Of a stretch of 64,000 bases of DNA, positions 6,238 through 6,582 are shown one piece after another. Both the position numbers and the translations under genes were made by a program. The first letter of the stretch is position 1; each line of letters begins with the position of its first letter. Below the pieces are notes generated by a model. That model was not told the origin of the DNA, made no database searches, and worked only from the letters and a program-made list of their open reading frames with translations. This DNA is from Escherichia phage vB_Ec-M-J. The DNA lies in the sequence record OQ718158.1; one strand, written 5' to 3'.

Positions 6238-6582
6238 AATAAATGTAGACGGTTGTATTCAGTACTGAATCACTAGGGGAGGTTGTGATTCCCGATTCAG
6301 TAGTTTTAAAGCAGACCCGTATGTGCCTATACATTACAACTAGTGCACATTTAAAACCTAGACGTAGGATGTAAGTATTCAGTACTGAATAGCTGAAGGA
6401 CTTATTATGGTACAATACAGTGAGAGGTACTTCGAGTATGCTCAGTTCACCTTTAGCTAAAATGGTCACTGTAGGATATTGTTGCAACAGTATTCAGTAC
6501 TACTTTTTAATTGACATATCATTGGATGAGGTGTAATATGGTTCAAGAAGAAAACTGGGGTTTTTAACACAAAGAGGCCAAT

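Follow-up and report, generated by a model that had tools for sequence, protein, structure and literature searches.

Over-represented genomic signal words include Chi, the DNA uptake sequences DUS and USS, and KOPS, and phages are generally reported as avoiding, not accumulating, short palindromes. Within a single intergenic region near an early promoter, operator clusters of the lambda OR/OL type place three related dyad-symmetric sites, and Arbiol and colleagues reportedly described, in 2010, promoter-early stem-loop (PeSL) cassettes in T4-type phages. Here we analysed 64,000 nucleotides (64 kb, the window) of Escherichia phage vB_Ec-M-J (OQ718158.1), in which the palindromic hexamer AGTACT is found throughout. 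Its longest-armed copies are two identical perfect palindromes, ATTCAGTACTGAAT, termed site 1 and site 2, which lie with a partial copy (site 3) in a conserved non-coding block upstream of an early promoter. An original prediction, made from the sequence alone, had noticed the repeat and suggested operator sites or paired hairpins.

Like the signal words, AGTACT is a short word far above expectation genome-wide, within and between genes, and like USS and DUS it often stands as inverted pairs that form terminator stems (GCCAGTACTtgAGTACTGGC followed by a T-run). Unlike Chi and KOPS, it is palindromic, without strand polarity, and viral. The motif search proposed in the original prediction, run on the 64 kb, returned 187 copies compared with 21.9 expected from base composition or 21.3 from a first-order Markov model (~8.5-fold), and GTAC with its extensions provided the most over-represented words at every length from 4 to 8. 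CAGTAC/GTACTG was observed 236 times (23.6 expected), CAGTACT/AGTACTG 178 times (7.7 expected) and CAGTACTG 42 times (0.7 expected, 62-fold). Copies were evenly spread at 8–17 per 4-kb bin, those in plus-strand genes occupied all three frames (46, 26 and 40), and density was 2.7 per kb in open reading frames (ORFs) and 4.3 per kb between them. As the word is present in every bin, all frames and non-coding DNA, it is not specific to the locus where it was noticed.

Most copies (152 of 187) fall within ORFs, about three times the 48.4 ± 5.6 obtained when synonymous codons were shuffled within each ORF. Codon usage or dipeptide bias was ruled out as the cause by these shuffles and by the spread over frames; repeats or paralogs were ruled out by the even density and by an excess that holds in the replication genes of Klebsiella phage RaK2 too. 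Individual sites are also retained. In an alignment with phage 121Q (83.7% identity), 80 of 117 AGTACT sites (68%) were intact, compared with 1201 of 2519 same-letter permutations (48%, Fisher p = 1e-5), and turnover left ~37 sites specific to each phage. The even spread, the presence in all frames, the synonymous shuffles and the conservation of sites indicate that the excess reflects selection on the DNA itself. Spacing between copies (median/mean 251/343, or about one copy per 340 bp) fits random placement, and no regular spacing or helical phasing was found within the window.

The excess extends to other giant enterobacterial phages, for which 50-kb samples were compared. AGTACT reached 6.7 times the composition expectation in Klebsiella RaK2 (106 copies in ORFs, codon-shuffle mean 31.9), 6.7 times in Cronobacter GAP32 (104, mean 26.6), 6.6 times in Pectobacterium CBB (106, mean 30.3) and 5.9 times in Salmonella Munch (94, mean 28.6). 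In these four phages and in 121Q, as in the window, no words stood further above expectation than AGTACT and its extension CAGTACT. T4 showed no excess, with 4 copies in 50 kb, and PA5oct, a Pseudomonas relative, had 3 copies, only 1 of them in ORFs against 12.1 ± 3.1 in codon shuffles, which is significantly fewer. From these sequence comparisons AGTACT is a signature word of the enterobacterial Rak2-like clade, apparently maintained by selection acting on DNA. We found no description of the AGTACT excess, of dual-AGTACT promoters or of leader palindromes in the RaK2, CBB, Sharanji or fEgEco12 papers or in full-text searches, the coverage of which leaves out many subscription journals. Published restriction digests of fEgEco12 employed enzymes other than ScaI (AGTACT) and RsaI (GTAC).

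Two further words were noted in these genomes. The Chi octamer GCTGGTGG had 6 copies in the window against 0.4 expected and was also above expectation in 121Q, GAP32 and CBB, with no strand bias; this excess may be a mere reflection of Gly/Ala-rich repeats. In the PA5oct sample (its positions 1-50000), the over-represented words were TCTGCA, ATGCAG and GCAGAA (~4-fold), hence the signature word may differ between branches of the phage lineage.

The surroundings of AGTACT are symmetric: C precedes and G follows the hexamer, T is favoured at -3 and A at +8, with TTC as the most frequent half-site flank, and the two bases after CAGTAC are TG in 35% of cases, against ~6% expected from composition. 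The extended consensus is [A/T]TTC-AGTACT-GAA[A/T], which sites 1 and 2 match perfectly, and the half-site consensus is common to Asteriusvirus and RaK2. All of this, together with DNA-level selection in every frame and at synonymous sites and the conservation of individual sites above matched hexamers, would be expected if a phage- or host-encoded, putatively dimeric DNA-binding or DNA-modifying protein read the dyad genome-wide. Sites 1–3, spaced by ~11 helical turns, would then group its best targets and serve as a nucleation point, a decoy or a regulatory locus, and in early promoters this protein would occupy positions near -41 and -21. As an account of the three sites we regard this as unlikely, and several observations reported below count against it. 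One is that no candidate protein emerged: among the nine neighbouring proteins scanned with Pfam and PHROG, none carried a DNA-binding domain, with the sole exception of an HNH endonuclease (6883-7290).

A host protein that recognises a similar word is SlmA, whose binding sites in E. coli (GTGAGTACTCAC) are 12-bp palindromes with an AGTACT core recognised by a dimer; SlmA requires G, T, A and G at positions 1, 2, 4 and 5 and a purine at position 3 (GT-R-AG-Y / R-CT-Y-AC) (PMC3020112). These sites share with the phage word the AGTACT core, and they are recognised by a dimer in hosts of these phages. The phage word differs in its preference for T, T and C at positions 1–3, and G is the rarest base (6–12%) just before AGTACT. 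SlmA-binding sites were rejected, with no full match in the window and six other phage segments and with 9 of 374 half-sites matching.

AGTACT also occupies fixed positions in promoters. A sigma-70-like class with the layout TTGAC(T/A)-N9-AGTACTG-(N0-1)-TATAAT makes up 7 of the 49 promoter-like sites in the window, examples of which start at 4116, 4537, 5297, 21596, 25905 and 36771. The tRNA-cluster promoter at 5297 (5292-5325) has a dual form, with AGTACT at 5292 and 5312; the other AGTACTG promoters of the window (five or six) keep only the copy beside the -10 box. RaK2 has a promoter-dense stretch of small ORFs, 11 kb long (positions 1-11070 of the segment analysed), with 72 AGTACT copies. 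Promoters there follow AGTACTTGACA-N8/9-cAGTACTG-(g)-TATAAT or CATAAT, and 12 pairs of AGTACT stand exactly 20 bp apart, one copy abutting the -35 box and the other abutting the -10 box of a dual promoter. RaK2 and the window are alike in carrying AGTACTG directly upstream of the -10 box, and both the 12 RaK2 pairs and the AGTACTG promoter class of the window are further points for a dimeric reader.

Terminators use the word as well. On the minus strand (45180-63810), nearly every gap between paralogs of ~380 aa, annotated in 121Q as ‘RCC1-like, putative DNA condensation’, has a terminator consisting of GCCAGTACTtgAGTACTGGC and a T-run, the hairpin of which is two AGTACT words, and a TATAAT-type promoter comes next. 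Another promoter cassette, TTGACTtcggtcagccctttttgcTATAAT, is repeated at 27684, 31278, 32058, 34321, 38944, 40422 and 41834; its -35 box lies inside a TGAC-TTCG-GTCA hairpin, like the mobile stem-loop/promoter cassettes of T4-type phages. Taking the word, the promoters and the leaders described next together, we place at close to, but a little short of, an even chance the proposal that positive selection maintains the AGTACT dyad as a genome-wide signal in enterobacterial jumbo phages of the Rak2-like group (Asteriusvirus, Alcyoneusvirus, Mimasvirus and Munch-like phages), where a putative dimeric protein or modification enzyme would read it and where early promoters (near -41 and -21) and leader hairpins incorporate it.

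The leaders are best seen in RaK2, two loci of which were listed, among many chance matches mostly in unrelated contigs, when IMG/VR was scanned for the 14-mer of sites 1 and 2. RaK2 leaders contain perfect palindromes of 18–22 bp centred on AGTACT (GGGAATCAGTACTGATTCCC, GGGATTCAGTACTGAATCCC, GGGTATCAGTACTGATACCC and GGAATCAGTACTGATTCC), and ATTCAGTACTGAAT sits inside the second of these, GGGATTCAGTACTGAATCCC. They fold at -7.9 to -13.1 kcal/mol, and in three of the four the palindrome ends 3–5 nt before AAGGAG, with ATG 9–10 nt further on. A Shine-Dalgarno (SD) sequence and start codon follow 43–60% of long-armed AGTACT sites, compared with ≤5% of short-armed ones. The arms (AATC, ATTC or TATC) differ between leaders yet are perfectly complementary, which argues for base pairing; such a signature is not that of base-specific protein contacts and speaks against a dimeric reader of the leader sites. 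The window shares with RaK2 the same 14-mer at the palindrome centre, its intergenic location and its position 3–5 nt before an AAGGA(G) SD sequence and ATG. However, the RaK2 palindromes are GC-clamped (GGG...CCC), 18–22 bp long, ~20 nt past a promoter and followed by real genes, whereas those of the window are AT-armed and weak (~-3 kcal/mol), lack a promoter immediately upstream and are followed only by a start-stop and a 17-codon ORF.

The repeats of the window and the elements beside them are the following.

6241-6517, plus strand: conserved non-coding block of 277 bp, from AAATGTAGACGG (6241) to TTTTTAATTGACAT (6517), in a 15-genome alignment.

6255-6270, no strand assigned: site 1, GTATTCAGTACTGAAT, with a 14-bp perfect palindrome (6257-6270, arm 7) and AGTACT at 6261-6266.

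6276-6288, plus strand: Shine-Dalgarno-like GGGGAGG (6276-6282), 5 nt past site 1, then a TTG-TGA start-stop; putative function.

6295-6302, plus strand: additional half-site ATTCAGTA, overlooked by the original prediction; it complements the right half of site 1.

6375-6390, no strand assigned: site 2, GTATTCAGTACTGAAT, with a 16-bp perfect palindrome, TATTCAGTACTGAATA (6376-6391, arm 8), and AGTACT at 6381-6386.

6407-6460, plus strand: mini-ORF of 17 codons, MVQYSERYFEYAQFTFS, starting 6 nt past GAAGGA (6395-6400), with only the first 5 codons conserved.

6490-6501, no strand assigned: site 3, GTATTCAGTACT, a partial copy with AGTACT at 6496-6501, then AC and a T5 run (6504-6508).

6511-6539, plus strand: sigma-70-type promoter TTGACA-17-TAATAT (10 of 12 matches), predicted to drive a 37-aa ORF (6583-6696) and tRNA-Thr (6770-6842).

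The repeated perfect palindrome is therefore as originally described apart from small coordinate corrections, with exact copies of ATTCAGTACTGAAT at 6257-6270 and 6377-6390, and the half-site reported near 6485 is GTATTCAGTACT at 6490-6501. Identity between the first two copies extends to 16 nt (6255-6270 and 6375-6390), and the three copies start 120 and 115 nt apart. Among the 187 AGTACT sites of the window, arms of 7–8 occur only at 6261 and 6381, both intergenic, all other sites having arms of ≤6. Site 1 is followed by acta-GGGGAGG-TTG-TGA and site 2 by gct-GAAGGA-cttatt-ATG(6407), that is, palindrome, 4 nt, AAGGA, 6 nt and ATG.

The 12-mer TTCAGTACTGAA of sites 1 and 2 was also seen within an ORF at 8557, where it overlaps the stop codon of ORF 8283-8567. 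An intergenic structure built from the AGTACT word spans 8556-8640 here: ATTCAGTAC (8556) and GTACTGAAT (8596) form a 9-bp stem, which encloses a second 12-bp inverted repeat, GGATAGCTTCTAG / CTAGAAGCTATC.

The source of the window is an Asteriusvirus, a jumbo coliphage of the PBECO4/121Q type, as judged from sequence matches; over 5700-7300 the best were TH47 (97.2% identity), EC.P1 (95.9%), and PBECO4 and 121Q (93–94%). The block was aligned in 9 and then 15 Asteriusvirus genomes, the relatives being 92–99% identical, and runs from the stop of a 71-aa ORF (6022-6237) to the -35 box of the next promoter. Over the 15 genomes, its columns are on average 95% identical. In collinear genomes, 8.7% of its columns vary; the figure is 17.6% for the ORF before it and 27.7% for the spacer after it. 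JNE01 keeps the block despite a different upstream gene, and relatives have three unrelated downstream contexts, each starting right after TTGACAT (-35 box). Homologues detected by blastn were confined to 36 Asteriusvirus records (≥91% identity), and an IMG/VR scan with an invariant 22-mer from the block returned only 121Q.

The original prediction had seen no convincing plus-strand ORF in the stretch, and this holds. The plus strand has only a 38-aa GTG ORF and a 17-aa ATG ORF and the minus strand an 87-aa TTG ORF; these and the ORFs annotated in relatives are disrupted or changed by the variable T-run and by single-nucleotide indels, which among the 15 genomes lie near 6306, at 6423, at 6436 and in the T-run. 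Since the indels break every ORF, the block is non-coding on either strand. Rfam gave no family for the block at E ≤ 10 beyond a chance-level match (E = 2.5), and window-wide only tRNAs reached the gathering score. A tRNA or pseudo-tRNA was rejected for 6180-6720, which had no match at E ≤ 10 and ARAGORN candidates only at 50–70% thresholds.

Variation within the block is unevenly placed. Site 1 keeps the 12-mer TTCAGTACTGAA in 14 of the 15 genomes, the lone change being GAGT at the outer edge in EJP2. GGGGAGG is likewise kept in 14 of 15, and the sole polymorphism in the next codon exchanges TGA and TAA, retaining the stop. At site 2, the core is AGTTCT in 4 of 15 (phAPEC6, SHEFM2K, CMSTMSU and BF17), a loss that is a further point against a dimeric reader, as are the 120- and 115-bp spacings, which are not both integral helical turns. 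AGTACT of site 3 is kept in 15 of 15, followed by a T-run of 4 to 7; its flank is ATCC instead of ATTC in 13 of them, so that the likeness to sites 1 and 2 is specific to vB_Ec-M-J and JNE01. The extra half-site is GAATCAG in 4 of 15, at the sole position left unpaired by the consensus fold described below. Two 1-nt deletions alter the mini-ORF (6407-6460) in five genomes and one alters it in JNE01; judging from the alignment, the peptide sequence, if translated, is not the conserved feature.

How far chance accounts for the repeats was estimated with simulations in which flanks were drawn from the observed preferences at the 187 real AGTACT positions. These gave an expectation of 1.5 perfect 14-bp palindromes per 64 kb, with P = 0.45 for two or more, and P = 0.005 for an identical 14-mer pair within 150 nt. 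The 14-mer with ≤2 mismatches matched 15 times in the window, against 0.67 expected from shuffles. General AGTACT enrichment thus explains the palindromes as such and not the identical neighbouring pair: enrichment, which the original prediction had named as the possible trivial cause, suffices for their number, whereas two identical copies 120 nt apart go beyond chance.

The expected number of palindromes is also the starting point for an explanation in which the copies are by-products without a function of their own: early-gene cassettes (promoter, leader palindrome, SD sequence and small ORF) would have been duplicated and have decayed under genome-wide AGTACT pressure, so that two identical remnants of leaders and a third AGTACT word persist in a spacer conserved for other reasons. 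Every other identical 14-mer pair in the window does belong to a promoter or terminator cassette that has been duplicated, the sequence of site 1 lines up in the register of the promoter cassette (TAGACG-N9-AGTACTG, compared with TTGACT-N9-AGTACTG), vestigial ORFs lie behind both SD-like runs, and the site 2 core and the site 3 flank differ in 4 and 13 of the 15 genomes, respectively. Neither site is itself a promoter: site 1, although in register with TTGACT-N9-AGTACTG, has a -10 with only 3 of 6 matches and without the final T, site 2 is without a -35, and the promoter scan called neither. Relics would, however, hardly be expected in a block about twice as conserved as the adjacent protein-coding gene and kept across recombination breakpoints, with site 1 constant in 15 of 15 genomes bar one edge base and with all variation respecting the predicted pairing. 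Tandem duplication of a 120-nt unit was rejected, as the three units have no similarity beyond the 12–16-nt repeat; units 1 and 2 align over the 16-mer alone (score 32, shuffle mean 15, maximum 26), hence no simple recent duplication is visible. We consider decay of duplicated cassettes improbable.

Folding of the 15 aligned genomes yielded a structure with the following hairpins on the plus strand.

6371-6405, plus strand: alternative hairpin GUAAGU-A-UUCAGU [ACUGAAUA] GCUGAA-GG-ACUUAU, from the 15-genome consensus fold.

6421-6444, plus strand: small hairpin GAG-G-GUAC-UUCGA-GUAU-G-CUC, with GAUGC-UUCG-GCAUU in other genomes; four haplotypes.

6474-6495, plus strand: 9-bp hairpin GGAUAUUGU-UGCA-ACAGUAUUC, the 3' arm of which overlaps the left part of site 3.

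In addition, the right half of site 1 (6263-6271) pairs with 6294-6302, the eight counted pairs being invariant. In the hairpin at 6371-6405, the left half of site 2 pairs with GCUGAAGGACUUAU (6392-6405), which holds the Shine-Dalgarno GAAGGA (6395-6400). This SD-sequestering form is predicted at -10.3 kcal/mol and the simple palindrome at -3.0; the loop of the former takes up the A>T variants of site 2, and a G>A change in JP4 turns one of its U-G pairs into U-A. The 6421-6444 hairpin is the most variable patch, with several substitutions and two indels among its four haplotypes, all of which fold at -5.9 to -7.2 kcal/mol; one A-U pair is G-C, changed on both sides, in five genomes and a neighbouring G-U is A-U. 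At 6474-6495, the second pair is G-C, G-U or A-U (A-C in two genomes) and another is U-G or C-G. Standard pairs fill 99.8% of the pair cells of the whole 15-genome structure; nine pairs show one-sided changes that preserve pairing, two have changed on both sides, and sliding the partners lowers pairing to 32–46%. Loops vary and stems change through G-U intermediates, a pattern that fits a structured plus-strand RNA, although we take it as suggestive only.

Our preferred reading of sites 1 and 2, held tentatively, is that they are transcribed leader stem-loops built on the clade signature word. They would be its consensus-perfect, long-armed form, in a leader module that appears also in RaK2. 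The block would be transcribed together with the flanking plus-strand genes (genes up to ~45 kb are nearly all on the plus strand), and each palindrome would form a stem-loop with a GUAC loop beside a ribosome-binding site. The left arm of site 2 could pair instead with the SD-bearing segment, so that this element would act as a gate on ribosome access, or on leader processing or stability. What is observed comprises the sequences and how they are conserved, genome-wide selection on AGTACT and the layout shared with RaK2; transcription, folding and any effect on translation are inferred. Between the two suggestions of the original prediction, hairpins and a positional pattern are favoured by the unique 7–8 arms, by an SD-like run within 3–5 nt, by the RaK2 layout and by variation compatible with hairpins.

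Several points weigh against leader stem-loops. Transcription and folding of the block are assumptions, and the whole block folds no better than its shuffles (z = -1.15 and -1.22). The simple palindrome hairpins are weak (-2.8 and -3.0 kcal/mol), unlike the GC-clamped ones of RaK2, and the promoter scan found no promoter upstream of sites 1 or 2 at a RaK2-like distance. Covariation support is thin because the relatives are 92–99% identical, and both partners have changed in only two pairs; the alignment against which the structure was judged is the one that produced it, and the sliding control is not a probability. The ORFs behind the SD-like runs are a start-stop and a 17-codon unconserved peptide, so the ‘leaders’ may be relics of decayed early genes. 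Finally, the apical CAGUACUG, which never varies, and the selection for AGTACT everywhere at the DNA level are just as compatible with a DNA-binding factor.

A different pairing arises when a single sequence is folded. A helix between site 1 and site 2, with 22 predicted pairs, then dominates the fold and the centroid (-42.1 kcal/mol, z = -2.9), and it was also chosen by the 9-genome consensus. Such a helix of ~21 bp, enclosing 106 nt, could be a stalk cut by host RNase III, separating upstream mRNA from downstream RNA and freeing a small stable RNA, in the manner of the stalks that flank rRNAs or of the small stable RNAs encoded in the T4 tRNA cluster. Over 15 nt, the arms 6256-6270 and 6377-6391 show 100% complementarity, but a palindrome that is present twice can always pair in this way, hence the long helix adds little or no independent information. 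Local hairpins are preferred by the 15-genome consensus; four of the 15 genomes have a central U-U mismatch in the long helix, where 97.4% of cells are paired compared with 99.8% for the local hairpins, and no compensatory change supports it. The location within a tRNA cluster is as for T4 rnaC and rnaD, and the block resembles these in being a conserved, non-coding, apparently structured stretch among phage tRNA genes; homology was rejected, with local alignment scores of 17 and 14 against shuffle means of 17 and 16, and this absence of sequence similarity further lowers the case for a stalk, which we consider very unlikely.

As operators, the three sites resemble the lambda clusters in number, relatedness, dyad symmetry and location in one intergenic region near an early promoter. 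Unlike operator clusters, they lie off the promoter, with centres ~285, 165 and 48 bp upstream of the inferred start, and even site 3, centred near -48, is not at a classical operator position. Nor is a repressor gene adjacent, and the word occurs ~190 times in 64 kb, including inside genes. The local-operator half of the original prediction is thus counted against by the genome-wide spread of the word, the distance of the promoter (~280 and 160 bp from sites 1 and 2), the lack of a DNA-binding neighbour and the loss of the site 2 core in 4 of 15 genomes, and the distance from the promoter to be regulated is equally a difficulty for a dimeric protein acting here.

Site 3 is best read as something different from the leader stem-loops that we prefer for sites 1 and 2: an ordinary AGTACT word at the foot of a hairpin and T-run directly before a sigma-70 promoter, apparently a stem-loop/early-promoter cassette at which relatives recombine. 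The hairpin at 6474-6495 is AU-rich, with T5 (6504-6508) 8 nt later, and the terminator scan gave no call; the promoter at 6511-6539 is the only good promoter near the repeats. PeSL cassettes are similar in layout: this stem-loop and T-run stand directly before a sigma-70 early promoter, and the -35 box is a mosaic boundary, the very point at which the relatives change over to downstream sequences unrelated to one another. The differences from PeSL and T4 are that AGTACT is not a T4 feature (4 copies in 50 kb) and that sites 1 and 2 are not beside a promoter.

Among the surrounding genes, the tRNA cluster contains the repeats and comprises tRNAs for Ser (3423), Ser (5332), Met (5575), Asn (5658) and Thr (6770) as found with ARAGORN and Rfam. 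A sixth tRNA (3517-3595), directly 3' of a tRNA-Ser and with the anticodon loop CTTCTAA, is probably Arg-TCT; it scored 32.6 bits against the Rfam threshold of 29 when the region was searched alone and was missed by ARAGORN and the whole-window Rfam search. Three tandem paralogous small ORFs of ~54 aa (MTHEEWMNDINF...) occupy 3621-3950, between this tRNA pair and the next promoter. A stretch of ~340 nt (~4572-4912), GC-richer and ORF-poor, follows the strong promoter at 4537-4565 and ends in GGCGTTTAAAAGCGTC...TTTTTTTT; it is a candidate non-coding RNA gene, with no annotation in EC.P1 and no Rfam match. The HNH endonuclease gene (6883-7290), 3' of tRNA-Thr, is present in TH47, EC.P1 and WPEC5 and absent here from 121Q, PBECO4 and A4, and is probably a mobile insertion. 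Further along, a phage sigma-70-family factor (18232-19200) has Pfam regions 2 and 3 without region 4, and so may recognise promoters independently of the -35 box.

The local element resembles known kinds, namely leader hairpins and operator-like palindromes, and alone it amounts to a modest cis-element in the early/tRNA region of a jumbo phage. The more unusual result is the clade-wide selected palindrome: a hexamer 6- to 8.5-fold above expectation over four genera of giant enterobacterial phages, down to synonymous sites of essential genes, with individual sites under purifying selection and copies at fixed positions in early promoters. Because phages normally purge short palindromes, one so strongly selected implies a dedicated reader, which may be a binding protein, a methylase-dependent system or a nickase. 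If the AGTACT dyad is such a signal, the observed density corresponds to roughly a thousand copies per genome, with the palindromes at 6257 and 6377 as the strongest sites, and the putative reader would act on the whole 350-kb chromosome. It would constitute a virus-wide ‘self’ code, or one for chromosome organisation or a transcription switch, in phages without a phage nucleus, and would be the opposite of palindrome avoidance. The AGTACT excess also offers a simple sequence signature for recognising the clade in metagenomes, and the identity of its reader could explain early-transcription shut-off, DNA organisation or self-marking in jumbo phages that do not form a nucleus.

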